DNA from: a virus
IMG/VR virus record: IMGVR_UViG_3300038620_000126
Coordinates: 1 to 64,000 of that record
Strand: one strand, 5' to 3'
DNA: 64,000 nucleotides
Under the pieces are notes generated by a model. That model worked only from the letters and a program-made list of their open reading frames with translations. It made no database searches and was not told the origin of the DNA. The position numbers and the translations under genes are program-made. This document shows positions 11,552-58,216 of this stretch, piece by piece; within the stretch, counting starts at the first letter, position 1; each line of letters opens with the position of its first letter.

Positions 11552-11980
11552 TTATTTAAGTTCGTTTGAGTAATACATTGAACTTTCATAGGTTGTATCT
11601 ACAGAAAAGCTATCAATATAACCAGATGGTATAGATGTATCATCATATGATCCTCTTATAATTTCTTCTATTATTACCGCAATTTCATCATTATTTGTAA
11701 CATCAAATTCTGAACTTGCTTTCATATTTACTTTAATTCGATTTCCCATTATTTCGATTTTCCCGCTGGACTTAACTGGAAAGTAGGATTTAATACGCTC
11801 CTTAACATAATCAAAAAAATCACTTGTATATCTTTCAGATTCTAATTCACTATTAATATTAACATCAATTTTAAATTCTAAATATTCTGATTGTGACTTA
11901 ACAGCCTCCGCCAAAAACTGATTAAATGTTTTTACTCTATTTTTTTTAACTTTATAAAAATCAGTTAATTTATTTTTCAT
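11552..11980 (-). CDS. Putative capsid-internal protein (CTS-like VKTFNQFLAE)
   Basis: N-terminal motif; late motif at 11992-11999. Confidence 0.6.
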   Translation of the reverse strand: MKNKLTDFYKVKKNRVKTFNQFLAEAVKSQSEYLEFKIDVNINSELESERYTSDFFDYVKERIKSYFPVKSSGKIEIMGNRIKVNMKASSEFDVTNNDEIAVIIEEIIRGSYDDTSIPSGYIDSFSVDTTYESSMYYSNELK

Positions 11981-12069
11981 TACTTTTTTCTTATTTATTT
12001 AAGTTTTTTCAAAAATTGTTTAGAAACCTTATTTTTAGAAAAAGAAATAAATAAGAAAAAAAGAAAACT

Positions 12070-12642
12070 ATGGCTAGCTTACCTCATTATACGAACTCAA
12101 AAGTATCAATGTCAAACGATGAACCCGCATTTCTTAATCGGTTTAAAGTTTACATTGATTTACCTGAAGCACTGCGTTCCAAATACCCAAATCGCGAAAT
12201 TTGGATTGAACAAGTGAAAAAGATTTCGGGTCTGGAAACCGATAAACATCCAGGGACTGGTGCTGAACAACGTTTTGAATTTGCTCAACGCCGTTTTCCA
12301 AAGTCATTACCCGAAAGCACCACTGTTGATCTTGAGATGGAGTTTGAATGTAACATTAATGATCAAGGTGAATTTTATCCCTATAATGTTTTTCAAGACT
12401 GGTCTTATTCAATTTACGATCCTAGGACTGGTGCAATGGGATTAAAGAAAGATGTTGTTGGTTCAATGGAAGTTCTTTGGTTCCGTAAAGATGGTAAAGT
12501 ATTTAAGAAGTATGTATTTCCCGAAATTTGGGTTTCGGAGGCACTCAATGCTCCAGAACTAGATTATACAAGTGAAGATATATTTGTACTAAGTGTTAAG
12601 TTTGCTGCAGACTACTTTAAGATTCTTGATGTTGAACGTTAA
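12070..12642 (+). CDS. Tail tube protein (T4 gp19-like)
   Basis: NRFKVYI..P, DW...IYDPRTG.MG.K, Y.F...W...L...ELDY pattern; 190 aa; late motif upstream. Confidence 0.8.
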   Translation: MASLPHYTNSKVSMSNDEPAFLNRFKVYIDLPEALRSKYPNREIWIEQVKKISGLETDKHPGTGAEQRFEFAQRRFPKSLPESTTVDLEMEFECNINDQGEFYPYNVFQDWSYSIYDPRTGAMGLKKDVVGSMEVLWFRKDGKVFKKYVFPEIWVSEALNAPELDYTSEDIFVLSVKFAADYFKILDVER

Positions 12643-12674
12643 AATTTTGATTTTTTAATAAATAGAAAAAAGTT

Positions 12675-13388
12675 ATGCAAAAAGGAGTTTTATCTTACAG
12701 GGAATTTCTAAATGAAAGTAAAATACCCACTGTTAAAAAGTACAGGGATAGAGAAACCATTTACAATTATGAAAAAGCAAGCAAACGTAATTATATACTA
12801 AAGCAAATTTATGATAAAGGTTTTTTAACAATTGAAGAGTTAAATAATATAGCCGAAAAACCCCATGCTTCATGGTTTAGTAAAAATAAAGATTTTGTTC
12901 GTTCAGAATTTATTCGTGGGCGTAGAGTGTATAAACTTACACGCTGGGGGGAAAAATTGGTTGAAAAAGTTTATGGATTAAATGAGGGTTTTAGTATTAA
13001 TGATAGTATTTTTAATGAAAAGTTAGTAGAACCATCATATTATAAAGGTGATTCACCTGTGAGTTATAATTTTTGGAACCCCAAGTTACTGGCAGATGAT
13101 GATAACGAACTAAACAGACCCTATAAAAAACATAAAGACTTAGCTAAAGAAATTGAAGATTACTATAATCAAAGTAAATCAAAGTTTCGTTATAAAATGG
13201 ATGTTTATAAAAATCAAGTTGTAAATAAAAGTGGTAAAGTTCAAATTAAAAATAAAACGCGCATTCAAAAGATTAAAAATTCTGTAAGATGGATTATCAA
13301 AAATGTTATGCCATATAATAAAGTTCCAAAAGATCATGAATATGAAACTGCATTGAACTTTTTAATGGCTAATAGTCAGAAAAAATAA
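12675..13388 (+). CDS. Putative capsid-internal protein (CTS-like LSYREFLNE)
   Basis: N-terminal motif; possible winged-helix-like segment; late motif at 12657. Confidence 0.55.
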   Translation: MQKGVLSYREFLNESKIPTVKKYRDRETIYNYEKASKRNYILKQIYDKGFLTIEELNNIAEKPHASWFSKNKDFVRSEFIRGRRVYKLTRWGEKLVEKVYGLNEGFSINDSIFNEKLVEPSYYKGDSPVSYNFWNPKLLADDDNELNRPYKKHKDLAKEIEDYYNQSKSKFRYKMDVYKNQVVNKSGKVQIKNKTRIQKIKNSVRWIIKNVMPYNKVPKDHEYETALNFLMANSQKK

Positions 13389-13400
13389 ATACTAAAAAGT

Positions 13401-16899: not shown

Positions 16900-17253
16900 T
16901 TGAAAAAGAAAAAAGTAGAAACTTTTAATGAGTATTTAAATAACTTAAATGAAAGAACGCTCACACATTACGATATTGAAAAAATTTCAAAATCTAAACC
17001 ACTTAAAGATCTTTTAGAATCTTTTGGTGTAAACCAACTAAGTAAAGATGAAAAGTATCACCTCTATGCATATTTATATCACGGAATTAGAAATGAATTA
17101 GCAAACCCAAGTTCAAGACTTCGTAAAAAACTTGAACGAGAAGGTGAATCTAATGCTTCATCAGTAATATCTTATGTTGGAATGTTTGAAAGTCTTTTTG
17201 AAGACTTAATGTTAAAAAATAAACCACCAAAAGAAAACCGTAGAAGCTCTTAG
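16900..17253 (+). CDS. Putative capsid-internal protein (CTS-like VETFNEYL..LNE)
   Basis: N-terminal motif; AATAAATA at 16877. Confidence 0.6.
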   Translation: MKKKKVETFNEYLNNLNERTLTHYDIEKISKSKPLKDLLESFGVNQLSKDEKYHLYAYLYHGIRNELANPSSRLRKKLEREGESNASSVISYVGMFESLFEDLMLKNKPPKENRRSS

Positions 17254-19688: not shown

Positions 19689-20057
19689 ATGATAAACATC
19701 AAAAAACGTAAAAAAATATACTATGATTCAGATAGTAAATATAAAACTGTAAATCACATATCTCACTTTAAAATGCCTCCAACCGTAACTGAAGATTATT
19801 ATGACAATGTTTTAATTAAACCTACGATGCTTGTATATCATAATAGTTATATTGTTAGTGTAGATTTTCTTATTTTCACTATAGATGGATTTGTTTCCCA
19901 TAATTTATTTGGTCCATGTTTAGTAGCTTTTGGGGCATCACTATCATATGAGTTTAACTATTATGGAAAAACGGTTTCTTATGAAGAACTAAAAAATATA
20001 AAATTAAAAAATCGAATTAAAGAAACAAGTAACAAAAGTAGTTATGATAAACCGTAA
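19689..20057 (+). CDS. Array paralog 1 (HNxFGP...YGK.VSYEELK)
   Basis: ORF track; paralogy. Confidence 0.8.
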   Translation: MINIKKRKKIYYDSDSKYKTVNHISHFKMPPTVTEDYYDNVLIKPTMLVYHNSYIVSVDFLIFTIDGFVSHNLFGPCLVAFGASLSYEFNYYGKTVSYEELKNIKLKNRIKETSNKSSYDKP

Positions 20058-20406: not shown

Positions 20407-20417
20407 CAAAAGTAATT

Positions 20418-24529: not shown

Positions 24530-25636
24530 TCACTTTATCCAACCTAAGTTTTCTATAATTTCAAAACTTGTTATAATGTAAGCTGCATAACTCAGAAAAC
24601 TAACTATAAAAGTATATCCCGGTATTATAAGTTCCATCAATGGTATTATAATAGCTTTCTTAAGCGCTTTTTTTGTACCCATTTCAGCAATATAACTTAC
24701 AATCTTAGGAAAATAGTGGAATTTAAAGGGACCTGGACCATCTAGTTTATTTGCTATAAATTCTGATGCTTTATTCATTCCTTTTTCAAGGTTTTTTCCA
24801 TAAAAATTTGCAAGATCAGCAAGCCAACTAAAAGGAGGAACTTTTGCAGATATATCATGAACAACTTTTCCTATCCAACTGTGGCTTCCACCGCCCTCTT
24901 TAATAAGTTGTTCCTTGTCAGATTTAATTTCAGTAACTAGTTCATTCCAGTTTCCTTCATTAATAATATGTATAAATTTTTCTTTTAGGCTTTTGTTAAG
25001 AGATTCATTACTTTTATTTTCTTTTTCATCTTCAAAAGCATCTTTTAATCCTGGTTCAATTTTATTCTTAAACGTTTTATCTATATCTCCTTTAAATTTT
25101 TTACCTACATGAAATACTTCATCTTTTGCGTTTTTTACTTCTTCTACTATTATTTTTCTTTTTTCTTTCATATCTTCATCACCTACGCTTTCTATCTTTT
25201 CTTTAACTTTTTTGGTTGCATTTTTAATATTAACACCTGCGATTTTTAACATAGTTTTCCTATCAAATGAAAATAGTTTTTTTAGTTCATCAAATTGTTC
25301 TTTAATAAAGTTTTTAAACTTTTTAAAACTTTCTGCTGCCTTTTTAAGTTTATTAGCAACTGAATCTTTAATGTCTTTAAATTCTTTACTTTGAAGAAGT
25401 TTATCTAAACTTTTTTGAACAACGTTTTCTGTAAGGGTATCATCAATCATTATCCCATCCAACTTACGATACACTTTTTTACTGGATCGATTTAATTTTT
25501 CAACAAAGTGAATTTCTTTGTTTGTTAATTCACCCGAATTTAATACAAAACTTTCTGATAGGTATTGAATGTTTCTTGTGTATTTACTTAAGTTTTGTTT
25601 TTCACTTATAAATTCATCAAATGTTTTAAGTTGCAT
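24530..25636 (-). CDS. Putative capsid-internal protein (CTS-like LKTFDEFISE) with hydrophobic C-terminal helices
   Basis: N-terminal motif, Lys-rich coiled coil, TM-like tail; late motif at 25651. Confidence 0.65.
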   Translation of the reverse strand: MQLKTFDEFISEKQNLSKYTRNIQYLSESFVLNSGELTNKEIHFVEKLNRSSKKVYRKLDGIMIDDTLTENVVQKSLDKLLQSKEFKDIKDSVANKLKKAAESFKKFKNFIKEQFDELKKLFSFDRKTMLKIAGVNIKNATKKVKEKIESVGDEDMKEKRKIIVEEVKNAKDEVFHVGKKFKGDIDKTFKNKIEPGLKDAFEDEKENKSNESLNKSLKEKFIHIINEGNWNELVTEIKSDKEQLIKEGGGSHSWIGKVVHDISAKVPPFSWLADLANFYGKNLEKGMNKASEFIANKLDGPGPFKFHYFPKIVSYIAEMGTKKALKKAIIIPLMELIIPGYTFIVSFLSYAAYIITSFEIIENLGWIK

Positions 25637-34178: not shown

Positions 34179-35858
34179 TTGGCAGGATTTTTAGATAATA
34201 TAACATCTGGAATTGTAAAGCCTATATCTGATGCGTTTAAGCGCCTTAGTTCTGCTGGGCTTCAATATAAAGATCAAGTAATACAAAATTCTATTACGCT
34301 TGAACAAGAACCTGGAAGTGCAGGAAATAGAACGAATCGTTTTAACTTTGGAGACAACCAAAATGATATTGATCCATCATATGCAGAATTTCTAAACAAT
34401 GCCGCACTAGCAGATTATAACTTTAAAAAGTATGTTCCCTTTTTTGATAATGACTATGCATCAAAACGAAGTGAACTTCAAAGATTTTCAATGAATGGTG
34501 AAATTGATTTTATTCTTTCTACATTATCAAATGATTCAATCGTATTTGACACAGAAAACAAATTTTGTTATGTTGATACTTCAAAATTAGAAGACTATTC
34601 AGAAGAGGTTCGAGAAAGTGCCAGAAACAGGTTTGAAGAAATTTATACTTTGTTTTTTGGTTATTCAGATATGCCTTATAGATATTATCGTCAATGGTTA
34701 ATAGAGGGTGTTATTGCTTTTGAAATTGTTTATGACGATATAGCAACCCCCAGTCAAATTATCGGTTTTCATGAGGTTGACCCCGTTACATTAAAACCCG
34801 AAATCCGACAAGAAAATGATGGTAGTTTTTATAAGGTTTGGGTACATGATCAAAATAGTTCAAATTATGGAAACGCACGTAGTACAGCAAATCAAAAAGA
34901 ACTTTATGACAGTCAAATAATTTTTATTTCTTTTGGAACACCGAACCAAACAACTCGTGTTTCATATGCAGAAACCCTTGTACGTTCTTATAATCTTCTT
35001 AGAATTATGGAACACAGTCGGGTTATTTGGAACTTGATGAATTCAAGTTTTCGATTAAAAGCTGTTGTTCCAACGGGTTCCGTTTCTGGTCATAAGATGC
35101 GTCAAAAAGTTTCCGAATTTAAAAATGAATGGAAAGAAGATATTCACATAGATGATGATTCAGGTGAAATATCTGTTAATGGACAGCCCAACTTTCCATT
35201 CCATAAAACATTTGTAATACCCTCAGCAGGTGGTGAACAAGTTGAAATTGACTCTATGAATTTTGAAGGGCCTGATCTTTCAAATATGGAAGCGGTTAAA
35301 TGGTTTCGTGATAATCTTAGACGTGATTCAAAAATTCCCTTTGAACGTTTTGAACGTGAACAAGGTGGCGGAGAATATACAATGAACGTCGAAGGCATTG
35401 CACGGGAAGAAATGAGATATAACCGTTTTATAAACCAACTTAGAAGTACATTTGAAGAAATTATACGTAAACCTTTGTATCATCAAATGTTGCTGGATTA
35501 CCCTCAACTTCAAGATGATATGACTTTCCAAAGTAAGTTGGGCATTAAATACAACAGAAATAATCTTTTTGAAGAAATGAAAAAAGCTGAACTGGTTAAG
35601 AGGGAAGTTGAAACTATATCAACAGTTCAAAATAATTTAATGGAAGAAGGTGGTGAGCAACCTTATATTCCAACAGAATGGGCAATAAACAAATTCTTAA
35701 ATCAGTTTACAGAAGAAGAAATGGAAGACCTCAAAGAAGCCAGAAAAAATCGTGAAATACGAAAGAAAAAAGAAGAACAAGGTGAAGGCGAAGGAGAAGC
35801 TGGAGCCGGAGCTGAAGATATGGGGGGTGATGAAGGAGGCTTAGATATTGGACTTTAA
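34179..35858 (+). CDS. Portal protein (T4 gp20-like)
   Basis: W.I.G.I.F, YN.LR.ME, V.WF...L...SKIP..RF, I.REE..Y..FI..LR..F motifs; acidic G/E tail. Confidence 0.92.
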   Translation: MAGFLDNITSGIVKPISDAFKRLSSAGLQYKDQVIQNSITLEQEPGSAGNRTNRFNFGDNQNDIDPSYAEFLNNAALADYNFKKYVPFFDNDYASKRSELQRFSMNGEIDFILSTLSNDSIVFDTENKFCYVDTSKLEDYSEEVRESARNRFEEIYTLFFGYSDMPYRYYRQWLIEGVIAFEIVYDDIATPSQIIGFHEVDPVTLKPEIRQENDGSFYKVWVHDQNSSNYGNARSTANQKELYDSQIIFISFGTPNQTTRVSYAETLVRSYNLLRIMEHSRVIWNLMNSSFRLKAVVPTGSVSGHKMRQKVSEFKNEWKEDIHIDDDSGEISVNGQPNFPFHKTFVIPSAGGEQVEIDSMNFEGPDLSNMEAVKWFRDNLRRDSKIPFERFEREQGGGEYTMNVEGIAREEMRYNRFINQLRSTFEEIIRKPLYHQMLLDYPQLQDDMTFQSKLGIKYNRNNLFEEMKKAELVKREVETISTVQNNLMEEGGEQPYIPTEWAINKFLNQFTEEEMEDLKEARKNREIRKKKEEQGEGEGEAGAGAEDMGGDEGGLDIGL

Positions 35859-45000: not shown

Positions 45001-46365
45001 TTAAACTATTACTCTACCTTCAACATCAGAAACAGCTTTAACATCTTCTTTTGTGAAATCTTTTTTATTTTCATCACAAATAAAATCACCCCCAACTTTT
45101 TCAGGAGCACCTTCAAGGGATGTTAAATTATTACCAAAACAATCAAAATCACCCCCAACTTTTTCAGGGGCACCTTTAAGAGATGTTAGACTATTACCAA
45201 GACAATTAAATTCACCCCCAACCTTTTTAGGTGCATCTTCAAGGGATGCTAAATTGTTATGGGAACAATCAAAATCACCCCCAACTTCTTCAGGTGCACC
45301 TTCAAGTGTTGTTAATTTATTACCAGAACAATCAAAATTACCACTAATATATTTAAGCCTGTAATTGTTTATAATTTTTTTATAATTTTTAGGGTTGAAC
45401 TTTAAATTTACATTACCTTTAATGTTAACTATATTTCCATCTATTTCAAATGTCCCATCAACAACATAATTTAATGTTTCTTTTGGGCTTGAAGAGAAGC
45501 TATTTATATCATAAGATTTAAATTTATCAATAACATCTTTCTTAAAAAATACGGCTTGTTCAGGTTCATTGGGATGAATAAACCAGTCTTCACCTTTATC
45601 AATAAAACCTTCAATATCCAAGTCCAAGTAAATTTTTGTTTTAAATTGTATACTTTTATCTTCTCGTAAAGCTAAATCAACATAGTTATTTACAAAAAAC
45701 CAAAGTGTTTCAACCGTTGGTTGATAATTTTTAGTATTACGCATTATAGTATGACTTAATTCATTCCATTTTGCTGAATATTTTCTGGAATATGTTAAAC
45801 TATTTAAATTAGTTTTCATTTTTTTAAAACTTTCTTTTCTTTCTGATTTATTATTTGATTTCATAGCTTTTATATAGTTAAACAATAAATCGAAAGCATC
45901 TTGTGGAAGATTATTTTTTAATTTCTTGTTAGACTTACAAATTTTGTAGAACTTTTCAATATGTTTAAGAACTTCAGAATCATGAGTTAAAATTTTACCT
46001 TTTTGAATTTTGTTTTCTTTAATTTTAAATAAGTGAATTACATTAGACATATTAGGAATAAAAGGATAAAATCGTTCTAATCTTTCTTTAATTTTTTCAT
46101 TAGGAGTACTATTTGTAAAACCTGCTGTTATCCTATTATAATCTTCTTTGTTAAAAGGGTAAGCATAATATCCAGCGGGTGTATTATAACCAGTAAAAGG
46201 ATTTATAAATGTTACAGTATTTTTCCGTCGAAATGAAATAAACCAATTATCTAAACTGTCATTTCCAATAGTATTTTTAATAAATTCAACAATGTTTATA
46301 TCTCTATTGACTTCAGGGTTTCTTCGCTTTTCCGTTAAGTAATTTTGAAAAGACTTTAAACGCAT
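45001..46365 (-). CDS. CTS-tagged protein: possible ART-like N-domain plus 22-aa LRR-like repeats
   Basis: LKSFQNYLTE; GYYAYP...EGFID.G..IHPNEPEQAVFF; about 4 x LTSLEGAPxxVGGDFxC. Confidence 0.75.
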   Translation of the reverse strand: MRLKSFQNYLTEKRRNPEVNRDINIVEFIKNTIGNDSLDNWFISFRRKNTVTFINPFTGYNTPAGYYAYPFNKEDYNRITAGFTNSTPNEKIKERLERFYPFIPNMSNVIHLFKIKENKIQKGKILTHDSEVLKHIEKFYKICKSNKKLKNNLPQDAFDLLFNYIKAMKSNNKSERKESFKKMKTNLNSLTYSRKYSAKWNELSHTIMRNTKNYQPTVETLWFFVNNYVDLALREDKSIQFKTKIYLDLDIEGFIDKGEDWFIHPNEPEQAVFFKKDVIDKFKSYDINSFSSSPKETLNYVVDGTFEIDGNIVNIKGNVNLKFNPKNYKKIINNYRLKYISGNFDCSGNKLTTLEGAPEEVGGDFDCSHNNLASLEDAPKKVGGEFNCLGNSLTSLKGAPEKVGGDFDCFGNNLTSLEGAPEKVGGDFICDENKKDFTKEDVKAVSDVEGRVIV

Positions 46366-46377: not shown

Positions 46378-46650
46378 TTATTTATTTAAGTTATATTCTT
46401 TTATTACATTTTTAGTATCATAGTTAACATTATTAAAAATCTTATTGTCATCTAAATCAAAAGCTTTAAGTTTTCCTTTTATATTATAACCGAATTGTTC
46501 TGAATGGGCATTTCTACCTGAACCCCCACGCCTCAAAAAAGTTAATTCTTTTTTATTGAGATTCATTTGTGATTTTAACCAATCAAGAAAAGGTTTATAA
46601 TCTGTTTTCTTTTTTGATTTTACATAATCTTTGAATTTTTCTAGTTCCAT
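46378..46650 (-). CDS. Hypothetical protein (weak CTS-like LEKFKDYV)
   Basis: 90 aa between the two paralogs. Confidence 0.55.
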   Translation of the reverse strand: MELEKFKDYVKSKKKTDYKPFLDWLKSQMNLNKKELTFLRRGGSGRNAHSEQFGYNIKGKLKAFDLDDNKIFNNVNYDTKNVIKEYNLNK

Positions 46651-46664: not shown

Positions 46665-48326
46665 TTAAGTGTCAATAAATCCACTAACATCTATAACATT
46701 TTTAATTTCTTCTACTGTAAATTCTTTTTTATTATCCATGATCATAAAACCACGGACCTTTTCGGGTGCGCCTTTAAGAGATGTTAAGTTATTATGAGAA
46801 CAATCAAACACCTTTTCAACTTCTTTGGGGGCACCTTCAAGAGATGTTAATTGATTATTAGAACAATCAAAACCTTTTCTGATATAATTAGGAGCACCTT
46901 CAAGTGTTTTTAATTTATTATCAGAACAATTATAGTCACCTCCAAAGTTAAATCCTTTTTGCTCAAATCCAACTTCCTTCGGCCCCCCCTTTAAACTTGT
47001 TAATTTATTATCAGAACATACAAAATTTCCAATAATTTTTTGGGGACAACTTTCTAAAGATTTTAGTTTATTATTAGTACAGTCAAGATCACCACCTATT
47101 TCATTTGGTAAACCTTTTAATGTTTTTAGATCATTAGATTTACATTTTACATTTGTCTTTACAGTTGAAATGCCTTCTAATGTTTTGAGTTCGTTTAAGT
47201 TACATACAAATTCACCATCAACTTTTTTGGGGCATCCTTCTAAAGATTTTAATTTATTATTAGAGCAGTCAAATTTTCTTCCTACATATTCAGGAATTCC
47301 AATTCTTAGAAGAGATGTAATACCGATTGCTTTACAAATAAAACTTCCAGTAACATTACCAAATTTATACTTTTCTGTAATTCTATAAAAATCTGCTTTA
47401 CTATTAAAAAATACATCTCCATCAACATTAATTACATTGTTTTCTTTTATTTCATATCTTCCACGTATTACTTTATTAAGTAAGTTGTTTATGTTACCCA
47501 CAAAATCTATTATGTCGTAGGAATAAAGATTTTCAATAACATCTCTAGTAAAAAATATAGCCTGTTCGGGTTCATTGGGATGAATAAACCAGTCTTCACC
47601 TCTATCAATAAAACCTTCAATACCTAAATCCAAATAAATTTTTGTTTTAAGCTGCGCTCCACCAGTTTTCACTAAGTCAACATAATTATTTATAAAAAAC
47701 CAAAGCATTGAAACCTTTTTCTGTTTTTTAATAACAAGTTTTAACTTACTCCACATTTGATCCATTTCATAATCATTTGGTTTTATATTTTCAATTAATT
47801 CACTGACTTTATTATAGTCTTTTTCTTGATTCACAACAACTTCTAACAAGTCAAAAGCAGCCTGCGGAAGGTTATCTTTTAATATTTTCTTTGTTTTACA
47901 AATTTTATAGAATTCTTTAATATGTTTAAAAGCTTTTGAATTTCTTGTTAATATTTTTCCACTTTTAACTTTTTCTTGTTTGATCTTGAATAGATGAATT
48001 ATGTTAGAACCCCTTGGAAAAAATGGGTAAATATCTTTTATTTTAGTTTTAACTGAACTGTTATCGCTACTTTCATCATATTTACTTAGTAATTCATTAT
48101 AGTCTTCTTTATTAAATGGATATGCATAATATCCAGCAGGAGTATTATATTCGGTAAAAGGGTTTACAAATGTTACAGTATCTTTTTGTCGAAATGAAAT
48201 AAACCAATTATCCAAACTATCATTTCCAATAGTATTTTTAATAAACTCAATTATGTTTATATCTCTATTAACTTCAGGGTTTCTTCGTTTTTCTGTTAAG
48301 TATTCATAAAAATTTAATAACTTCAT
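46665..48326 (-). CDS. Paralog of 45001..46365 with about 9 LRR-like repeats
   Basis: Near-identical first 75 aa; repeated LxSLEGxPxxVxxxFxCSxN. Confidence 0.75.
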   Translation of the reverse strand: MKLLNFYEYLTEKRRNPEVNRDINIIEFIKNTIGNDSLDNWFISFRQKDTVTFVNPFTEYNTPAGYYAYPFNKEDYNELLSKYDESSDNSSVKTKIKDIYPFFPRGSNIIHLFKIKQEKVKSGKILTRNSKAFKHIKEFYKICKTKKILKDNLPQAAFDLLEVVVNQEKDYNKVSELIENIKPNDYEMDQMWSKLKLVIKKQKKVSMLWFFINNYVDLVKTGGAQLKTKIYLDLGIEGFIDRGEDWFIHPNEPEQAIFFTRDVIENLYSYDIIDFVGNINNLLNKVIRGRYEIKENNVINVDGDVFFNSKADFYRITEKYKFGNVTGSFICKAIGITSLLRIGIPEYVGRKFDCSNNKLKSLEGCPKKVDGEFVCNLNELKTLEGISTVKTNVKCKSNDLKTLKGLPNEIGGDLDCTNNKLKSLESCPQKIIGNFVCSDNKLTSLKGGPKEVGFEQKGFNFGGDYNCSDNKLKTLEGAPNYIRKGFDCSNNQLTSLEGAPKEVEKVFDCSHNNLTSLKGAPEKVRGFMIMDNKKEFTVEEIKNVIDVSGFIDT

Positions 48327-48370: not shown

Positions 48371-49930
48371 TTAGTTGTTAGTCATTTTCCACTTAATTTT
48401 ATCAGTACTATAAATTTTTTCATATCCCATTTTTTTCATGATTTCAGATTCTGTATTATTACTTACAAAACTTTGATCTAGCTTAAATTTTTGTTGTATT
48501 CTTTTTTTAGAAAATGCAGATTTATGAATACGTTTATCACTTTTATAATATGAATAATCTGGTTTAGTTTCATACACTTTTTGAAAACCTAACTTTTGAT
48601 ACATATCTCCTGTAAACATTGAACTATCAGAAAAACTAATAATTTTTTCTGGATTATAATTTTTAACAAAATAATTAAATAGCTTACTAGAACCACCAAT
48701 AACATTTGTGTTAAGAATCGTAGCATATCGAGTAAGTTCCCAAACATCTTCTTTGTTTTTTGATGTTGATATATTTCTAGTTCTTTTGCTAAAACTCATA
48801 CAAGCTACCAGTCTTGTTTTATAATAAAGACCAAAATTTAATTCATAAAAAGAATTTAAACCTTGAATGTGATTTAATTTATAAAACTTTTTGATTTCTT
48901 TTGGATTGACTTTTAACACACTACATTTTCTAGCATATACTTTATTTTCGGTTTTACCAATTGCATTTTTTATAAGCGACTTTACTATATCTGTTTTGTA
49001 TTGCCAGTCATCTTCCCATACATGTATTAACCTGTATCCAGCTTTTTTGCAAAGATCTGTTTTTCTTTTATGGTAATATTTGTCATTTAAAAACTTATGT
49101 GAATGATAGTATAATCCATTGAATTCAATTGCTAATTTATAATTTGGTATTACAATATCAAGTTCATAAGGACTGATAAGTTTTTTATCATTAAAAAGTA
49201 ATTCATTATAATTTATTAAAGAAGTAATATAATTTTTTAGTTGCATTTCGCCCTTAGAAGTATATCTTTGACGTTTGTTATAACAAAGTGGAACACCATC
49301 ATTTAACAACTTATTAACTTGATTTTTATTAATAGAAAATTGATTCTGTGTGCAACTACAATCATGACACTTTAATGTAATAGAGTTGGATTCATTTTTT
49401 AAAATTTTATAATTATCTTTTAATTTTTCATAATTATTTTTTACCCATTCACTTAACACTTTTTCTTTTATATACTTTGATTGAGATGGTACTTTTGTGC
49501 CATATTTTTTAAGATTTGTGTTTTCTCTTTTTGCTTTAATTTCTTCAATTTGGTTGGGATTCTTAACTCCATACTTTTTAAGCAGTGTGTTTTCTTTAGA
49601 TTCTTTAACCGAATTGTCTTGAGAAATATTAGTAACATTATAACGATTTTGATTTGTTGCTTCTCTTTTTTTGTTTGTTATATTCTTTCCTTTTTTACGG
49701 CAATCTGAACTGCAAAATTCAGCAAATTTCTTTTTTTCGTTTATCCACTTTGTTTTTAATCCACACCATTTACATGTTGGTAAAGACTTTAATCCGTTTT
49801 TATACAAATAAAACTTTTGTGAAGTTGTTAAATCTTCAGATTTTTCTACATCACTAAAGTAATCTTTTGTATTATCTTCAAAGTATTGTCTATGCTTTTT
49901 ATATCTAAAATCCAGATTATCCATTTTCAT
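48371..49930 (-). CDS. Free-standing Hef/Vsr-like homing endonuclease
   Basis: Zn-finger CxxC...CSxxC, KKYG..N repeats, SKGE...ELDI.IP..KLAIEFNG.Y.H...IHVWEDDW, and WELTRYA...GG.SKL. Confidence 0.8.
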   Translation of the reverse strand: MKMDNLDFRYKKHRQYFEDNTKDYFSDVEKSEDLTTSQKFYLYKNGLKSLPTCKWCGLKTKWINEKKKFAEFCSSDCRKKGKNITNKKREATNQNRYNVTNISQDNSVKESKENTLLKKYGVKNPNQIEEIKAKRENTNLKKYGTKVPSQSKYIKEKVLSEWVKNNYEKLKDNYKILKNESNSITLKCHDCSCTQNQFSINKNQVNKLLNDGVPLCYNKRQRYTSKGEMQLKNYITSLINYNELLFNDKKLISPYELDIVIPNYKLAIEFNGLYYHSHKFLNDKYYHKRKTDLCKKAGYRLIHVWEDDWQYKTDIVKSLIKNAIGKTENKVYARKCSVLKVNPKEIKKFYKLNHIQGLNSFYELNFGLYYKTRLVACMSFSKRTRNISTSKNKEDVWELTRYATILNTNVIGGSSKLFNYFVKNYNPEKIISFSDSSMFTGDMYQKLGFQKVYETKPDYSYYKSDKRIHKSAFSKKRIQQKFKLDQSFVSNNTESEIMKKMGYEKIYSTDKIKWKMTNN

Positions 49931-50672: not shown

Positions 50673-50826
50673 ATTTTCATATGTTTTTGTATTTATTTAA
50701 CCTTTGACGTTAAAGATAATAAAAAGAAAAGTATTTTACAAAAGTTTAAAAATAAAAAACCCGTTCAACGATAAAGCTGAACGGGTTTTTAAGTTTAGTG
50801 ATGGTTAGATTAAAGGAAATCAACAC
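50673..50826. repeat. 154-bp direct repeat, copy 2
   Basis: Includes the last codons of the major capsid gene. Confidence 0.9.
50754..50790. terminator. Major capsid gene terminator (bidirectional)
   Basis: AAAAACCCGTTCA/TGAACGGGTTTTT. Confidence 0.85.
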
Positions 50827-52630
50827 CACCAGCATCAGATGTTACGTCGAACGTAAGATAAGAAGTTTCTGGATACTTACCTGCCTCCGTGATAGCAGCG
50901 CGAGACTTAACTGCAATCTTTGGAGCCATAGTACCTTCAGCAATAGTGCTAATCGATTCTGCCATAAGGTATGGCATAAACTTAATTCCAGGTTCTTCAT
51001 CGCTTCCCTTACGCATAACGCAAACGCGAGAATCATTCCACTGCATGTTAGCATCACTATAAACAGTAACACCGAATACAGTACCATGAGGACTTACACT
51101 TGAGTTAGCTTGATCAAATGTATTTTGGAAGCTTGATGGCATGTAACCAGCAACATCTACCATACTCTGAGTTAAACGTCCACTCATAACAGCGCAATTA
51201 CCAGGTCCAATACGGTTGCGGTGATGCAAGAAACTTGCAACAGCACCAATGGTTCTTGGAATTCTCCGTTGAATGGTTTCTTGGTTTTCATACAAGGTTG
51301 TGGTACCAGTGAAACCCAAAGCGTTTGCAGGTTGACCTGCACTAGTTGGGAACGTTGCTAGTGTATTATCTTTACCCGGGTAGGTTGAATAAACACCATT
51401 ATTACCAATGTGTAAGTTGAAGTCCGATCCTTCAGTTTTGTAACTGTTAATATGGTTAGTCCAACCTAGTGCCATTGCGCGTCCAATCAGTGCTTTACTA
51501 AAGCTTTGAGTAAGCTCATTAACACAAGCACTTTCAGACATACCAACAGCATCAATACCCCAAATGGATTGATAGTCTTGGATTTGTTCAGTCTTCAATG
51601 GTAAAGCAATTTGGAAAGTTTCTGCTTCTACCAAACGGCTGAACATTTCCATGCCCAGTTCGCGATAATAGGTATTTTCACCAGTTTCGCGACTCATTGG
51701 GGAAGCATATGGACCTGCGTTAGCACCACTTGCATTACTGTTTGTGTATTGGCCAGCTTCAAAACCTTCAAAGTTAAGAGTAAAATCATCATTGTCTTGA
51801 GAACCAGCACCACTAAATCCGGGAATGTGGTTAGTAAGTGCAGTTGCCAGTTCTGCTCTAACGCCACCAAGCGCATTACTATCAGCAACAACACTACCAC
51901 CACTAGTCGGATCAAACAACCGATAACTTGTAGTGGTTCCCGTAAATACATCACTAATAGCCAAATTACCTGCGTTATTAGTGTATTGCACACGGAAAAT
52001 TGGATCAGGAGTAATACGATGCTTACCTAAGAAAGTCAAGGTCATAACTGTTTGGTTACTACCACTGCTTTCTTGAACTTCGTATTGCCGACCTTTAACC
52101 AAGCTATCAATAGTGCTTTGAGAAAGGTTATTGACAGCAATAACATAAGGAGCATTTTGTTTGCCCTGACCACGAATTTGACCACCAGCATAATTGTACT
52201 CTAGATAAGGCAACATAATTGCAGGCTTATCCATAGGGATAACAGGGAAAAGATCAAAAGCTGGTGTTTCAGCAGCAACCTGAATTGATACAGGAAGGGC
52301 AGCAGGGAAAACATCACCAGACCCCGTGTTACCACGATAAAACACATTTTGTGTAGAACCTTGTGGACCTGCAATTGAATTACCAGCACCATATTGTGCG
52401 GGGTTTGAAGGAGCTTGAACAGCACCAATACCATTAACATTACCCAAGGAAGCAGAAGTTTGACCAGCTTCGTTCAAAGGACCCATTGCACGTTTTGCAT
52501 GGTTATGGCAATATTGGTACAGCCACTGCCTACGGGATTCAGATAGTTGACTAGTATCAATGTTCATACTTTGCAACACTGGATCCCATGTTTCTTTTAG
52601 TTTTTGACTACTGAAGTCTTTAATAAACAT
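50810..52630 (-). CDS. Major capsid protein (T4 gp23-like)
   Basis: W.PVL propeptide, PM..P, EQIQD, G..F.PY, P.IA.KSR; predicted cleavage PLNE/A; highly expressed codon bias. Confidence 0.92.
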   Translation of the reverse strand: MFIKDFSSQKLKETWDPVLQSMNIDTSQLSESRRQWLYQYCHNHAKRAMGPLNEAGQTSASLGNVNGIGAVQAPSNPAQYGAGNSIAGPQGSTQNVFYRGNTGSGDVFPAALPVSIQVAAETPAFDLFPVIPMDKPAIMLPYLEYNYAGGQIRGQGKQNAPYVIAVNNLSQSTIDSLVKGRQYEVQESSGSNQTVMTLTFLGKHRITPDPIFRVQYTNNAGNLAISDVFTGTTTSYRLFDPTSGGSVVADSNALGGVRAELATALTNHIPGFSGAGSQDNDDFTLNFEGFEAGQYTNSNASGANAGPYASPMSRETGENTYYRELGMEMFSRLVEAETFQIALPLKTEQIQDYQSIWGIDAVGMSESACVNELTQSFSKALIGRAMALGWTNHINSYKTEGSDFNLHIGNNGVYSTYPGKDNTLATFPTSAGQPANALGFTGTTTLYENQETIQRRIPRTIGAVASFLHHRNRIGPGNCAVMSGRLTQSMVDVAGYMPSSFQNTFDQANSSVSPHGTVFGVTVYSDANMQWNDSRVCVMRKGSDEEPGIKFMPYLMAESISTIAEGTMAPKIAVKSRAAITEAGKYPETSYLTFDVTSDAGGVDFL

Positions 52631-52675: not shown

Positions 52676-54982
52676 TTAACGCGAACGGTACTTTAGATTT
52701 TCTTTTAATAGTTTGAGACCATCTTCATATCCCAATTCATTAGTGCTTTGCTCTTGTGCACTTTCATAAATACCGTTGTTACGACTTAGTCCTTGAAAGT
52801 TTTGCGATGATTTTGATTTTGTATCATTCACAATTGAATTAGACTTCCAGAACTTGTTAATTTTGTTTTGAGAATCGAAATTCCAAATTTTTGCCTGATT
52901 GTGAATTTGATTACGTTCACTCTCAGATAAGTTGTTCCAAACATTTACATATTGCTTGGGCATATTTTTTATGTAGCTTGGGGCATTTTGATCGCTTTCA
53001 TAAACCCTTCTACAAACTTCATAAATTTGATTTGGGTGATAAACTTGATTCTTAGCAATCTCATCTGAAACAATTTGCTTTTGTGCACTGGACAATCCAT
53101 AGAAAAACTGTTTCTGATTTTCTGAAAGCATTCTAACAAATGGATATAGTTCATCAACTGATTCTGAATAATGCCTTGAATAAGTTTGATTTGCTGCTTC
53201 TAATGCATTATCTACAGTTTCATCAATACTTTCAATTTCAATTGAATCACCCAATTGATAGTGTTCCGTAATACCAGATTCATTCAGTGATTCTGCTATT
53301 GTTTCCGTATAATTAATGCTACTTTCAACACTAGGTTGTATTACATCTTCCATGTAACTTCCAATTGCTTCAATATTTTCTTTTAGTTTATCTGAATAAT
53401 TAATGCTACCTTCTAGGTATGGCTTAATTTCATCTTGTGTATAATCAATCAAATCATTAGTTCTTTCTGCAATGAATTCTGAATAATCTCTATTGCCTTG
53501 AATATTTTCACGAAGTTCTTCAGTATAATCAACAATGTGGTTTACATGTTCTGCAATGTTTTCGCTATAATTAATAGCACTTTCAACATTGGGGCGAAGT
53601 TCACCGTCCATATATTCACGGTTGTTGTGTATACCTTCTCTTAATTCGTTTTGGGTATAATCAATAAGTTGATTGGTTGTTTGACCAATAGCTTCGGTAT
53701 AACTAACTAGTTTATTGAATTTATTTTCAAGTGTATCAAAAGCATTTTTTATCTGCTTCGAATAGGCATTAATTTCATTTTTCAACTCTTTTATAGAGTT
53801 GTCATTTTCGAAAGTGTTGTTTTCTGCATAACCTGCAACACTATCAATTTTATTTTCAATATCTTCAAACGCTTCATTAATTTTTCTACTATGTTCTTCC
53901 AAATAGTTTGAAATTTGTTCAATTTTGCGTTGTTGATATGAATTTTCTGGAACTTTAGAACGTAGGTTTTTAATTTCTTTTTCTACATTTCTAAAATTTT
54001 TGTTGTGGGCTTCTGCGAGCCTGTCAACTTTTTGCTTTAATTTGTTTGTGGTTTTTTCAGTTTCGTAACCCATTTCTTTTAGTTTATTTTTTGTTTTATT
54101 TATTTCATTTGTTTTATTTATTTCATAATTTAAATTTTCTTCTTCAGATTCATATTCTTCATCTTCAAAGTTTTCTGATTCAAAGTTTATACGATCTATC
54201 ATTCTTTGAACCCTATTAACTTGTGATTCATTTAATGTATAGATAATTTGATTTCCATAGTCAGAATCCAAACCAAAATCTTCATTTATAATGGTAAGGT
54301 CATCTGCATCATTTACAACACCCAATCTTGGTTCATAGTCAAAGCTTGAATAAAGTGAACTATAGTTTTTATTGTTCTTTTCAGCAAGTCTTTGAAGTTG
54401 ATTATCAAGTGTTTTATAATATTCTCTATATTTTTGGCGGAGTTCTTCTCCCTCTTGAACTTGAGAAAGTTGAGCGCCCGAAAAACCGGGAACTGATACT
54501 AAATCATACGTAAAAATCTTTTTAATTTTTACTTTTTTATCATTTCCAACTTGACCTGCTGCTCTCGATGATATGTATAGCGGAACACCAGCATCAACTA
54601 AGTTTCTAGCCTGCTCCCCGTATATAGTGGGGAGTAAGCGAATTCTACCTTCAATTGTATTATTTTTCTTATTATACCAAACATTTTCAACTTTATGAGA
54701 TGCATTTTGAAGTGAAATATCAAAACCTTCTGGGTGATCCATTTCACCCAACAAAGCATTCTTTTTAGCCCTTTCTTGAAGTTGCCCTAACTGGTTTAAG
54801 TATTCCTGTTTTTCATAAATTCGATTATTATCGTTTTCTTTATCAAGTTCTGCAAAAGTACCTTCTAAAATGTAGTCTTTTGTCTTTTTATTTTCATTGT
54901 TACCTTCATTTACAAGCTCAATGTTAGAACTACTTTTTTCCAGTAAAAAAATCCATTGGTTATCATTTGTCTTATTAGACAT
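52676..54982 (-). CDS. Fused prohead protease (gp21-like) and scaffold (gp22-like)
   Basis: LEG.F....N.N.RIY, GEMDHP, SH, SSRAAG, DLV..PGF, then an acidic coiled coil with I(D/N)Y(T/S)E repeats. Confidence 0.88.
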   Translation of the reverse strand: MSNKTNDNQWIFLLEKSSSNIELVNEGNNENKKTKDYILEGTFAELDKENDNNRIYEKQEYLNQLGQLQERAKKNALLGEMDHPEGFDISLQNASHKVENVWYNKKNNTIEGRIRLLPTIYGEQARNLVDAGVPLYISSRAAGQVGNDKKVKIKKIFTYDLVSVPGFSGAQLSQVQEGEELRQKYREYYKTLDNQLQRLAEKNNKNYSSLYSSFDYEPRLGVVNDADDLTIINEDFGLDSDYGNQIIYTLNESQVNRVQRMIDRINFESENFEDEEYESEEENLNYEINKTNEINKTKNKLKEMGYETEKTTNKLKQKVDRLAEAHNKNFRNVEKEIKNLRSKVPENSYQQRKIEQISNYLEEHSRKINEAFEDIENKIDSVAGYAENNTFENDNSIKELKNEINAYSKQIKNAFDTLENKFNKLVSYTEAIGQTTNQLIDYTQNELREGIHNNREYMDGELRPNVESAINYSENIAEHVNHIVDYTEELRENIQGNRDYSEFIAERTNDLIDYTQDEIKPYLEGSINYSDKLKENIEAIGSYMEDVIQPSVESSINYTETIAESLNESGITEHYQLGDSIEIESIDETVDNALEAANQTYSRHYSESVDELYPFVRMLSENQKQFFYGLSSAQKQIVSDEIAKNQVYHPNQIYEVCRRVYESDQNAPSYIKNMPKQYVNVWNNLSESERNQIHNQAKIWNFDSQNKINKFWKSNSIVNDTKSKSSQNFQGLSRNNGIYESAQEQSTNELGYEDGLKLLKENLKYRSR

Positions 54983-55017
54983 AGTTTTATTTTTTCTTTA
55001 TTTATTTATTATAAAAT

Positions 55018-55041: not shown

Positions 55042-55080
55042 AGAATTTGACTTTTAGTAAGTATTTCATTAAAGTGTTAA

Positions 55081-55479
55081 TTAATCATCATCTTCTTCAC
55101 CCAAACCATATCTATCCTCTAACTCTTCCGCTGCTCCTTCTATTCCATAACTATCTTTCATTTCAGCCGTTTCAATAACATGTTTCATAACTTTTTCTTT
55201 TAATGAACCACCATCTTTATCTTCTGCAGCATCTAACAGTGCCATTAAGTCATTTTCAAATTCTAAATCAAATTCATCTGCTGCATCTTTCATAGCATAT
55301 TCAAGTGCATCATCTTTTACATTGTCTGCCACTGCGTCTGCTATATCATCAATATCAAATTCGGAAAATGCTCTGTTAGAACTTAAATTAAATTCAAGTT
55401 CTTCATTTATCTTCTTTTTATTTTTTGAAATTTTATTTTCTTTGATAAATTCATTAAATGTAGGTAGTTTACTTCTCAT
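55081..55479 (-). CDS. Acidic putative internal head protein (MRSKLPTFNEFIKE)
   Basis: CTS-like leader, INE site, very acidic body. Confidence 0.7.
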   Translation of the reverse strand: MRSKLPTFNEFIKENKISKNKKKINEELEFNLSSNRAFSEFDIDDIADAVADNVKDDALEYAMKDAADEFDLEFENDLMALLDAAEDKDGGSLKEKVMKHVIETAEMKDSYGIEGAAEELEDRYGLGEEDDD

Positions 55480-55534
55480 AATTATTGTTTTTGTTATTTA
55501 TTTAATAAAAAAAAATCCCACTTCAAAAGTGGGA
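55445..55534 (-). repeat. 90-bp cassette copy 1 (terminator + late promoter + leader + first CTS codons)
   Basis: 89/90 identical to 56260..56349. Confidence 0.92.
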
Positions 55535-55580
55535 TTTTATAAAATGTTTAATTTATTTTTGTAGTTTAGTAAAAACTTAA

Positions 55581-56294
55581 CTACAGTATAGTTTCCATCA
55601 TATTCTTAACATCTTTTTTGTTTTTAACAGGTTTATTGTAACCTGTAATTGCTTTAATATACTGTATAGAGTGTTTGTTATCAGGATCCAGTAAATCTTC
55701 AAGTCCAGGATCGCCCATTTTATATCTATTGTACAATTTACTTGAAAAATACATAAACGCATCACCAACTGCATTTTTTACTTTTGCTCTTATGGTGTTT
55801 ACTTTATCTTTTATAATGTTATCTACATCGGGTTCATTTTTTATTAATTTACTACTTACCTTTTTAACTGCATCATTAAGTGCAATAATAACTTCAGTTG
55901 CAACTCGTTTCTTAGCAAAGTCTTGAATAATACTTTCAACTTTATCTTCATTATCACCAAAAATTTCAGGCTTTGTTTTTTTATGCCGTTTTGCAATACT
56001 CTCAAAGAGATCGTTAAAAAAATCTATTGTTACTTTTTCAGTAAAGCTTTTAATAAGGTCATTCAATTTTTCAACTTTGTCTTCAGATCCACTTCTTTTA
56101 ATTCTAGTTACTTCATCTTTATAAACTGATAATAAAGATACGTCACCAGAATCAAGTGACTGTAACATATGCTTTGGTGCATGTTTTAGTAATGGATGAT
56201 TAACTGCATCTTGTATAACATCTGGCATATCACTTTTAGCCATGTTTTGATTTTCAGTAATAAATTCATTAAATGTAGGTAGTTTACTTCTCAT
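55581..56294 (-). CDS. Putative internal head protein (MRSKLPTFNEFITE)
   Basis: CTS-like leader. Confidence 0.7.
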   Translation of the reverse strand: MRSKLPTFNEFITENQNMAKSDMPDVIQDAVNHPLLKHAPKHMLQSLDSGDVSLLSVYKDEVTRIKRSGSEDKVEKLNDLIKSFTEKVTIDFFNDLFESIAKRHKKTKPEIFGDNEDKVESIIQDFAKKRVATEVIIALNDAVKKVSSKLIKNEPDVDNIIKDKVNTIRAKVKNAVGDAFMYFSSKLYNRYKMGDPGLEDLLDPDNKHSIQYIKAITGYNKPVKNKKDVKNMMETIL

Positions 56295-56349
56295 AATTAT
56301 TGTTTTTGTTATTTATTTAATTAAAAAAAATCCCACTTCAAAAGTGGGA
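56260..56349 (-). repeat. 90-bp cassette copy 2
   Basis: Contains the TCCCACTT/AAGTGGGA hairpin and AATAAATA. Confidence 0.92.
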
Positions 56350-56356
56350 CTTTAAA

Positions 56357-57019
56357 TTATGGATTTAACCGTTTTCCGATTTCAATAGCAGAACGTTTTT
56401 CTGACATTGAAAGTCCACTGATAGTTATTAGCCTTTCGTTAGGAATAATGGATTCGAATATAAAAGGACGGTTATTTACTGTAGAATGCATTTTTCCATC
56501 TTTACCGAATTTTGGGTAACCTACTTCTTTAATAACGCCCTTTTTACCTCTACCCGGATAACCATCTCGACACTCATTAGTGCTAATTAGGTAATATTTA
56601 CCTCCAGCGTCAGCAAAAGCTACAGAATCTTGTTTAAAGTATTCACCCAGTTTTGTTAAGGTATCTAGTAAATCTCCCGTATTTTCCTTATCAACTACAA
56701 AAAAGGATTCTTCTAATTCTTCTGGTTTTTCGTCCTTTTTTGGAGGATAATTTTTATAAAAAAGTCCTTTAATTGGCGTAACACCATAGTTCAAATACAA
56801 TAGCCTTTGTTTTAGTGTTGAATTGCGGATTTTATTTTCTTCTTTTGTATAGGGATCTCCACTTTGACAATCATCAGTTTCACGAAACGCGGTTATAACA
56901 CCGGTATCGTGATTTTTATAGTGTGTCCACAACCTAGATAATCCTGATTCGTTAATCTGATCAGATTTGCTAATTTTCTTTGCCATTGTAACGCTGTTTT
57001 TTTGATTCAATCGACTCAA
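56357..57019 (-). CDS. Conserved T4-like-phage hypothetical protein
   Basis: INESGLSR..., ITAFR, EN..RN..L, EESFFV, LG..F.QDSV pattern; true start possibly the downstream ATG (MAKK). Confidence 0.65.
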   Translation of the reverse strand: MSRLNQKNSVTMAKKISKSDQINESGLSRLWTHYKNHDTGVITAFRETDDCQSGDPYTKEENKIRNSTLKQRLLYLNYGVTPIKGLFYKNYPPKKDEKPEELEESFFVVDKENTGDLLDTLTKLGEYFKQDSVAFADAGGKYYLISTNECRDGYPGRGKKGVIKEVGYPKFGKDGKMHSTVNNRPFIFESIIPNERLITISGLSMSEKRSAIEIGKRLNP

Positions 57020-57100
57020 CTGTTAAACATTGTTAAGATCAAACAAGTTCCATGAACTATCCAAGATTGATGAGTTTATGCTTCATTTTATAAAAACAGT

Positions 57101-57682
57101 TCAATTAACACCAAGAACTTTTTTGATATCCTTAACAATTTTTTTAACTTTTTTGGGAACCTCTATTTTAATTTTGTCAACATCTAATTCACGTTCTACC
57201 TTTGCTGCTGTGTTTGTGTATAAAGTTTTCATTGTTTTAATATTTTTGTTAAGTTTACTGGAATTCACTGCTTCTGATGCTTCATCAGGATCAACAACAT
57301 TAATAAAAACTTCATAAACGTTTTCATTTTTATGATAAATAACTTCACTATAAAGAGCTGCTTTCTTTTTTTCAATTTTATCTAAAAACTCTTTTACTTT
57401 ATCACCTTTAGATGATTCATCAATTAACTTTTTCGTTGATTTTTGAGAAAGAATTCCAACATAGCTGTATGCATGTTTGTTTCGCTCAAGTCTTAAATTT
57501 TCTTTTTCAACAGTTTTAATTTTGTATTGTTCTTCATAAATATTTATAATACTTCTCATAATTAATGAAGCAAATTCTTCTGTAGGTGCTTTCATATTTG
57601 TAAGCACGCTATCATAAAGACCTTCTTTAACATTTTTATTTTCTTTAATAAATTGACTAAATGTAGGTAGTTTGTTTTTCAA
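57101..57682 (-). CDS. Putative internal head protein (KLPTFSQFIKE)
   Basis: CTS-like leader; late motif upstream. Confidence 0.7.
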   Translation of the reverse strand: MKNKLPTFSQFIKENKNVKEGLYDSVLTNMKAPTEEFASLIMRSIINIYEEQYKIKTVEKENLRLERNKHAYSYVGILSQKSTKKLIDESSKGDKVKEFLDKIEKKKAALYSEVIYHKNENVYEVFINVVDPDEASEAVNSSKLNKNIKTMKTLYTNTAAKVERELDVDKIKIEVPKKVKKIVKDIKKVLGVN

Positions 57683-57694
57683 AGCTGTTTTTTT

Positions 57695-58216
57695 TTATTT
57701 ATTTACTAGGAAAAATTCTACTGCATTTTTATAGTCTTTAGGAACAGAATTTTCAATTGTATCATGTATCCATTCCGATGCAAGCCATGTTAAAATTACT
57801 ATTTTTACTTCAGATTTAGTTAGTTCTTCAAATTTCATTTTTCCCTTTTCAGTTTTAAAAGTTTGATTATAATCTATTATTTCATTTTTTATGTAAATGT
57901 AAAAATCTTTAATTTTATTTCTACTAACTTCATATTTTTTATCAACTCTTTTTCGCATTATATCGTCTATTTCACTAAACATGTAGTCAAACGCCTCGCT
58001 GGGTTTTGGTAACTTTGAATCTTTTTTGTAGGTTTTTCCGTGTTTTGTTCGCTGCTTTTCTTTCATATGTTCTATATCATCAATAACAATAGAAGCGGTT
58101 TCTCTTAATCCACGTTTTATAAATCTTTTACTTTTATTTGTAATGTTAAAGGGGTTATCGTCGTATTCAAACGCTTCAAATAAAAATTCAGAAAAAGTTG
58201 GAATAAAGCTTGACAT
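57695..58216 (-). CDS. Putative internal head protein (IPTFSEFLFE)
   Basis: CTS-like leader; late motif at 58230. Confidence 0.7.
   Translation of the reverse strand: MSSFIPTFSEFLFEAFEYDDNPFNITNKSKRFIKRGLRETASIVIDDIEHMKEKQRTKHGKTYKKDSKLPKPSEAFDYMFSEIDDIMRKRVDKKYEVSRNKIKDFYIYIKNEIIDYNQTFKTEKGKMKFEELTKSEVKIVILTWLASEWIHDTIENSVPKDYKNAVEFFLVNK

Follow-up and report, generated by a model that had tools for sequence, protein, structure and literature searches.

Ten open reading frames (ORFs) in a 64-kb stretch of viral DNA, referred to here as the window, begin with versions of one short peptide, and this N-terminal tag is likely to be a capsid-targeting propeptide of the type found on the internal proteins (IPs) of phage T4. 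By sequence comparison, the tagged proteins probably enter the virion, are trimmed there by the head protease and pass into the host along with the DNA. The window makes up the first 64 kb of a linear 110,246-bp IMG/VR record (IMGVR_UViG_3300038620_000126), which has a CheckV completeness estimate of 41%. The GC content of the window is approximately 30%, and no near-identical GenBank phage was found by megablast against phages.

The ten ORFs, named here by their start positions, had been listed in a sequence-only reading of the window. All are present where they had been placed, and the peptides quoted for them are confirmed by translation. The pattern [KP]-[TS]-F-x-[EQ]-[FY]-[ILV]-x-E is found within the first 25 residues of 10/10, in the case of ORF 16900 as a spaced variant. 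The tag is 12–14 residues in length, up to 25, with the consensus M-x-x-[KP]-[TS]-F-x-[EQ]-[FY]-[ILV]-x-E. It is not hydrophobic in the manner of a signal peptide and is predicted by a structure model, at low confidence, to form an amphipathic helix. For ORF 11980 the gene and its tag are borne out, while the valine quoted as its first residue is a GTA codon and not the start, which is an ATG 16 codons earlier. ORFs 16900 and 57682 are likewise tagged as described, with TTG as the start codon.

The position of the motif is strongly biased. A strict pattern, [FY]x[EQND][FY][ILVM]xE, was sought in the 115 ORFs of the 110-kb record, taking the first 30 residues of each as the N-terminus (3,450 residues). 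There are 13 N-terminal matches versus 4 in 31,313 internal residues (odds ratio 29.6, Fisher p 1.4e-10), and 2,000 shuffles of the N-termini give a mean of 0.13 matches and a maximum of 2, so that the motif is enriched over shuffled controls. The 13 clear leaders in this record were used to build a leader profile of 14 columns (A1). With a threshold of 8 bits, this profile has 42 matches in 12,000 N-terminal residues versus one in 66,138 internal residues over the 300 ORFs of this record and two sister contigs described below; 42 of the 43 matches are inside the first 40 residues. The single internal match is a relic leader in ORF 79834. All 13 training leaders end the motif with [ILV]-x-E, as do 30 of 41 leaders over the three contigs, and six more of the 41, with heads of the MRLKSFQEYINSSSI[ND]E type, have I-[DN]-E five residues further on. 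Beyond the window, ORFs 67269, 77870 (spaced variant), 78962 and 83104 of the same record are also tagged, which brings the number of tagged genes predicted in this record to about 15.

The individual genes are given here with their leader-profile scores in bits and, in nucleotides (nt), the distance of the motif AATAAATA upstream of the start. Two are on the plus strand. The gene at 12675..13388 (237 residues, leader MQKGVLSYREFLNE, 19.7 bits, 18 nt) encodes a basic cargo with no Pfam or PHROG match, and the gene at 16900..17253 (117 residues, 12.0 bits, 23 nt) has the spaced leader KKKKVETFNEYLNNLNE, containing TFNEYLNNLNE. The others are on the minus strand. The product of 11552..11980 (142 residues, 22.0 bits, 19 nt) has a 25-residue leader, MKNKLTDFYKVKKNRVKTFNQFLAE, ending KTFNQFLAE; its mature part is acidic, with an isoelectric point (pI) of 4.5, and has no Pfam or PHROG match. 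The leader nearest to T4 MKTYQEFIAE, MQLKTFDEFISE, belongs to 24530..25636 (368 residues, 24.7 bits). Its body is helical and rich in Lys and Glu, the C-terminus is hydrophobic, and a second site like the motif, FKNFIKE, is found near residue 107. Among 5.8 billion clustered proteins this protein matched only itself. The genes at 45001..46365 (454 residues, leader MRLKSFQNYLTE) and 46665..48326 (553 residues, leader MKLLNFYEYLTE) share a conserved N-terminal domain, which is followed in the first by about four leucine-rich repeat (LRR) units and in the second by a longer LRR array. The remaining four are 55081..55479 (132 residues, leader MRSKLPTFNEFIKE, 25.5 bits), 55581..56294 (237 residues, leader MRSKLPTFNEFITE, 27.6 bits), 57101..57682 (193 residues, leader (M)KNKLPTFSQFIKE, 24.3 bits) and 57695..58216 (173 residues, leader MSSFIPTFSEFLFE, 21.7 bits). 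The cargo of 55581..56294 is an ORFan, for which exhaustive HMMER searching of 1.84 billion representatives returned only itself and one weak repetitive match. As had been proposed, the bodies are unrelated except for one pair: BLASTP of the mature parts links only 46365 and 48326, at 51% identity.

An ORF offered as a weak extra member, at 46378..46650 (minus strand, MELEKFKDYV...), is not taken as tagged. It scores less than 6 bits with the leader profile and has no AATAAATA, and is excluded from the count for these reasons; a 275-residue homolog on a sister contig has the same first 45 residues. Decayed tandem heads are found at 80425/80472 (79834-80566 of this record). The first, KILTFFEFLNE, is now the C-terminal tail of the untagged ORF 79834, which has an R...S...ExE-like pattern (VVFRG, FTAS, EHE). 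The second is a 31-residue stump of the LRR family, MKLKSFENYITEKRKKP....

A late motif had been reported just upstream of each of the ten genes, and AATAAATA is indeed present 18–26 nt before all ten starts. There are 58 copies in the record, of which 45 are within 60 nt (nearly all 15–32 nt) upstream of an ORF start on the same strand. The motif precedes 13/14 tagged genes versus 29/101 other ORFs (p 5e-6), and is also present before the portal, protease, large terminase, tail tube and head-tail adaptor genes. Because the portal gene has it too (34179..35858, plus strand, phrog_213 at 2e-61, AATAAATA 25 nt upstream), its distribution shows AATAAATA to be a putative marker of structural (late) genes. 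From this arrangement we infer that the tagged genes are expressed late, together with the head genes. The late promoter of T4 is TATAAATA, which AATAAATA resembles; TATAAATA itself is upstream of no ORF in this record. At 61813-62412 on the minus strand is a 199-residue ORF with a C-terminal helix-turn-helix of weak likeness to sigma-70 region 4 (E 0.007), the product of which is a candidate for the late transcription factor acting at AATAAATA promoters.

Within the tagged cluster there is also an S-adenosylmethionine (SAM) lyase family gene (56357-57019, minus strand; PF23780, 38.6 bits against a cut-off of 28). This was considered as tagged cargo and rejected, having no leader-profile match and no AATAAATA; an I-N-E at residue 13 is weak alone. 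Because both the tag and an upstream AATAAATA are missing, the SAM lyase is probably an anti-restriction protein that is expressed separately, perhaps early, and is not packaged cargo.

The best matches to the tag outside this lineage are in T4. In the six frames of the T4 genome (168,903 bp), profile A1 has three matches only, the top two being residues 2-12 of ipII (15.8 bits) and ipIII (13.9 bits), both MKTYQEFIAE. The third is ORF 61.1, an uncharacterised ORF of 54 residues (NC_000866 18966-19130) with a close copy of the IP tag, MKTFKEFIKE. According to passages in PMC8442874 and in PMC5694885, the latter citing Mullaney and Black 1996, MKTYQEFIAE is sufficient to encapsidate foreign proteins and is cut once by gp21. 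The T4 capsid-targeting sequence given in the sequence-only reading, with its cleavage by gp21, is correct by the same two sources, and the likeness to it is measurable by profile. Internal proteins in T-even phages form a diverse set that counters host defences and has only this tag in common (PMC3012670). Similar N-termini are present in LR756500.1, a distant 462-kb phage with a capsid protein 34% identical to that of this record, where they read MKFLKSYEEFLNE, MKYIKSYENFIFE, MEFVKTYLEFINE and MKFLETYENHIEE. LRR homologs in other large contigs begin MKNILDLERFLLLE, MISFREYLIE or MKKYFEFILE. The literature searched, mostly outside subscription journals, contained no description of the tag outside T4-type phages.

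A protease of the family that cuts the T4 tag is encoded in the window. The 768-residue product of 52676..54982 (minus strand) is a predicted prohead protease whose first approximately 200 residues are of the gp21-family Peptidase_S77 (PF03420, 36.3 bits against a cut-off of 27; phrog_207 at 4e-38), and tblastn aligns it with gp21 genes from T4-like cyanophages. Compared with the T4 gp21 structure 5JBL, it has His (MDHP) and Ser (ISSR) in place of two Ala residues of the crystal chain, at positions that we take to be the catalytic His and Ser of gp21. No close relatives in IMG/VR were found by peptide-pattern search. The C-terminal extension contains about ten repeats of about 14 residues (residues 423-575) of the form Y-[STM]-[EQD]-x-[ILV]-x-[EQ] (YSExIAE type), and LR756500.1 also has a repeat-rich protease extension with similar repeats. 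This composition suggests a scaffold fused to the protease, and the repeat region may be a scaffold that is cut into short peptides. An internal DYSEFIAE in the extension is not conserved in LR756500.1.

The protease gene is directly upstream of the gene for the major capsid protein, which is of the gp23 family (50810..52630, minus strand; PF07068 at 46.8 bits). The nearest matches of the capsid protein, at 26–34% identity, are in uncultured huge phages, Lak phages, phages of Tenacibaculum, Flavobacterium and Chryseobacterium, and Sphingomonas phage PAU. Judging by these relatives, the host is probably of the Bacteroidota type. Just downstream of the capsid gene is a 519-residue homing-endonuclease-like ORF (48371-49930, minus strand; phrog_3339 at 1e-108; DUF7487 and DUF559), and PTm1 has a Hef-like homing endonuclease at the equivalent relative position. 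The portal protein is 38% identical to an ORF adjoining the protease gene in LR756500.1. ORF 58838-60742 was considered as the portal gene and rejected, as it has no similarity to the portals of PTm1 or LR756500.1. The true portal gene being at 34179-35858, away from the protease gene, the T4-like order of portal, small core genes and protease is absent.

Two further IMG/VR contigs, both from IMG metagenome 3300038620, carry the same leaders as this record and also have a GC content of 30%. Contig 3300038620_000134 (81.7 kb, 31% complete) was reached by homology to the LRR paralogs, and a DNA pattern for KLPTF[NS][EQ]F[IV]xE matched only this contig and contig 3300038620_000113 (60.9 kb, 23% complete). 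The three contigs have almost no genes in common except the LRR family and one small family, and their completeness estimates sum to 95%. On this evidence they are probably parts of one jumbo phage of about 260 kb, or of very close kin. Over the 253 kb of the three contigs, 42 of the 300 ORFs (approximately 14%) are tagged, and their bodies fall by BLASTP into 31 families: one LRR family of 11 members, one pair and 29 singletons. The large and diverse repertoire that had been proposed therefore exceeds the ten genes first listed, with about 15 in the record and 42 when the two probable sister contigs are included.

Pfam and PHROGs recognise almost nothing in the cargo, and the ESM Atlas gave no useful information on 83104. 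By sequence, the arrays at the C-termini of 46365 and 48326 are LRRs of the YopM/IpaH/SspH/internalin type, the array of 46665..48326 matching PDB sequences of Internalin-J (3e-7), YopM (1.6e-6) and SspH2 (1.4e-5). The N-terminal domain of the LRR family has the conserved blocks FISFR, TPAGYY and EPEQAVFF and an R...T/S...ExE-like pattern. This makes an ADP-ribosyltransferase fold, as in T4 Alt, a candidate for the domain; Foldseek searches of the PDB and more widely with an AlphaFold2 model (mean confidence, pLDDT, of 68; core poorly modelled) gave only helical-bundle matches. One tagged protein of a sister contig (29550-30743, leader MKIKSFYEFVNE...) has a PolyA_pol head and RNA-binding domains (E 2e-33). 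It is predicted to be of the CCA-adding/poly(A) polymerase type and may be a tRNA-repair enzyme that travels ready-made in the virion. Another sister-contig cargo contains DUF5824. The cargo may have a role in anti-defence or takeover, the only hints of this being the LRR cargo, the CCA-adding-type enzyme and an HExxH motif.

The tag could also be a propeptide that the protease removes from core, scaffold or structural head proteins, as in T4 gp67, gp68 and gp22, and not a mark of injected effectors. This is improbable for the set as a whole, and some tagged proteins may nevertheless be core or scaffold parts. Four tagged genes are directly upstream of the protease-scaffold and capsid genes, and the core proteins of T4 too are cut by gp21 (PMC5694885). 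The product of 55479 is extremely acidic, like core proteins (mature part of pI 4.1, 31% Asp and Glu), and its gene is near the scaffold gene; because of this acidity it may be a core or scaffold-type part. Conserved structural parts would not be expected to make up 31 unrelated families with ORFan turnover, an 11-member family of effector-type LRR proteins and a CCA-adding-type enzyme, and within T4 it is the injected IPs that the tag matches most closely by sequence. A structural role would suit a few members, but leaves the turnover and the effector-like domains unaccounted for.

The heads also move as DNA. The head of 55479 is part of a cassette (55445..55534, minus strand) made up of a terminator hairpin (CCCACTT..AAGTGGG with a run of T), TTAAATAAATAAC, a 5' leader rich in A and the opening 12 codons. 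A second copy of the terminator, late motif and leader is present at 56260..56349 (minus strand), ahead of 56294. In an alignment the two are near-identical over approximately 95 nt, non-coding sequence included, and the identity ends where the cargo starts. Copying at the DNA level therefore occurs. An identical 17-residue head, MRLKSFQEYINSSSI[ND]E, is likewise found on unrelated bodies in different contigs, namely a 358-residue HExxH-containing protein of this record and LRR proteins of the others.

These copies, and the AT-rich first codons that are common in highly expressed genes, would also be expected if the head were an expression cassette only, tuned for translation initiation and spread by recombination, with no sorting or cleavage role for the peptide. 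This explanation is very unlikely. Among the 41 leaders, TCN and AGT are both used for Ser, TTR and CTN for Leu, and several codons each for Pro, Thr and Ile, while Phe exchanges with Tyr, Ile with Leu and Val, and Glu is at a fixed position in 30 of 41. Since the peptide is conserved through synonymous and conservative changes, whereas the untranslated regions diverge, the constraint is on the peptide rather than the DNA. The same peptide is also present in T4 and LR756500.1 amid unrelated DNA, and the motif closes with the sequence at which the encoded protease family cuts. Recognition of the tag by some other partner, be it a modifying enzyme, a chaperone, a membrane, or a secretion or compartment-import route, is suggested by the amphipathic helix of the low-confidence model, but has very little probability given that the three contigs (253 kb) encode no radical-SAM enzyme (control genomes were all positive), that the leader lacks the hydrophobicity of a signal peptide and that, outside the lineage, it matches the T4 capsid tag best.

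Several observations weigh against a capsid-targeting propeptide of the T4 IP type. A few heads have no terminal Glu at the usual place, namely those of the MRLKSFQEYINSSSI[ND]E type and that of sister-contig gene 2200. The cargo is of 100–550 residues and of mixed charge, the median pI of the 42 being 6.1, equal to that of other ORFs; 11/14 tagged proteins of this record are basic, but basic charge as an IP-like trait fails over the full 42-gene set. Mimicry by the leader of the 14-residue scaffold repeat (..NYSENIAE, ..DYSEFIAE) was also considered and is not upheld, as a profile of the repeat scores the leaders at about 0 bits, equal to background. Profile A1 has no match in PTm1, MaF61, MA9V-2, PAU, Lak-A1 or syn9, all of which have the same protease or capsid family, and the distribution of the tag is patchy for this reason. 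These six phages may use other heads, and the likeness to the T4 tag may be convergent.

If the tag is a T4-type capsid-targeting propeptide, as is thought likely, the tagged genes would be transcribed with the virion genes from the AATAAATA late-type promoter. The leader, probably an amphipathic helix, would then dock each protein onto the protease-fused scaffolding core, around which the capsid shell would close. The gp21-family serine protease would cut after the conserved Glu of [ILV]-x-E. The leader peptide would leave, and the mature protein would stay in the head and exit with the DNA at infection. New cargo could be recruited by the placement of an ORF behind the portable terminator, late promoter, 5' leader and tag codons, and unrelated bodies would therefore come to stand behind near-identical heads. 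In its widest form, this account describes a jumbo phage, probably of Bacteroidota, in which about one gene in seven (at least 42 genes in 31 families over 253 kb) is loaded by the tag and co-injected. These genes would make up an arsenal like that of type III effectors, renewed by cassettes and including LRR proteins and a CCA-adding-type enzyme. This wider account is conceivable, although the balance is somewhat against it.

Elsewhere in the window, four tandem small paralogs of 117–125 residues (19689-21126, plus strand) have N-termini of MINIKKRKKIYYDSDSK... or MINRKKKKKILYD.... This N-terminus is common to the four and differs from the tag; related ORFs beginning MVNYKKRR... are found on both sister contigs.

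Should the tag function as it does in T4, the proteins that a whole group of uncultured large phages carry in at time zero could be listed by a simple rule on sequence. Anti-defence and takeover factors are expected among such proteins, and nearly all of those listed here are without known relatives. The capsid-loading code of T4 would then predate the T-even phages by far, or be more portable than they are. Being so near to that of T4, the tag might also function in T4-based protein-delivery vectors.

The nearest known system is that of T4 IPII and IPIII, with IPI and Alt. It likewise has an N-terminal tag of approximately 10–14 residues, of near-identical chemistry (compare MQLKTFDEFISE and ...KLPTFNEFIKE) and ending [IL]-x-E, and the S77 protease, gp23-type capsid, late-type A/T-rich promoter and unrelated bodies behind one tag are also held in common. 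Unlike T4, this phage is of a distant lineage, with a GC content of 30% and a capsid protein that groups with those of Lak, Tenacibaculum and huge phages. The tagged genes number 10–15 in this record and rise to 42 when the sister contigs are added, versus a handful in T4. The T4 IPs are small, highly basic and DNA-associated, whereas the cargo here is of up to 550 residues and not uniformly basic. The tag usually has 2–4 extra residues ahead of the K/P-T/S-F core and travels with a terminator-promoter cassette, and scaffold and protease are fused in one protein.

Other phages load their heads by comparable or different means. In phiKZ, 201phi2-1 and SPN3US many head-internal proteins are cut after Glu by an S77-family protease, and their propeptides are thought to target the prohead (PMC5694885, PMC10052503). 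An S77-family prohead protease and many different propeptide-bearing or tagged proteins are common to those phages and to this one, in which they are seen from sequence alone. The phiKZ-type propeptides are mostly of more than 100 residues, have no common sequence and are cut at S/A/G-x-E, in contrast to the one short conserved tag ending [ILV]-x-E found here. The Dar anti-restriction proteins of phage P1 are packaged in the head, delivered with the DNA and counter host defence (PMC9024508, PMC12810830). The loading of P1 follows an ordered protein hierarchy (DarA, Hdf and others), with no shared short cleavable tag and no S77 protease. The kind of system is known from T4; this one is set apart by its lineage and scale (about 14% of ORFs), by how large and varied the cargo is, and by the terminator-promoter-tag module, which is portable.

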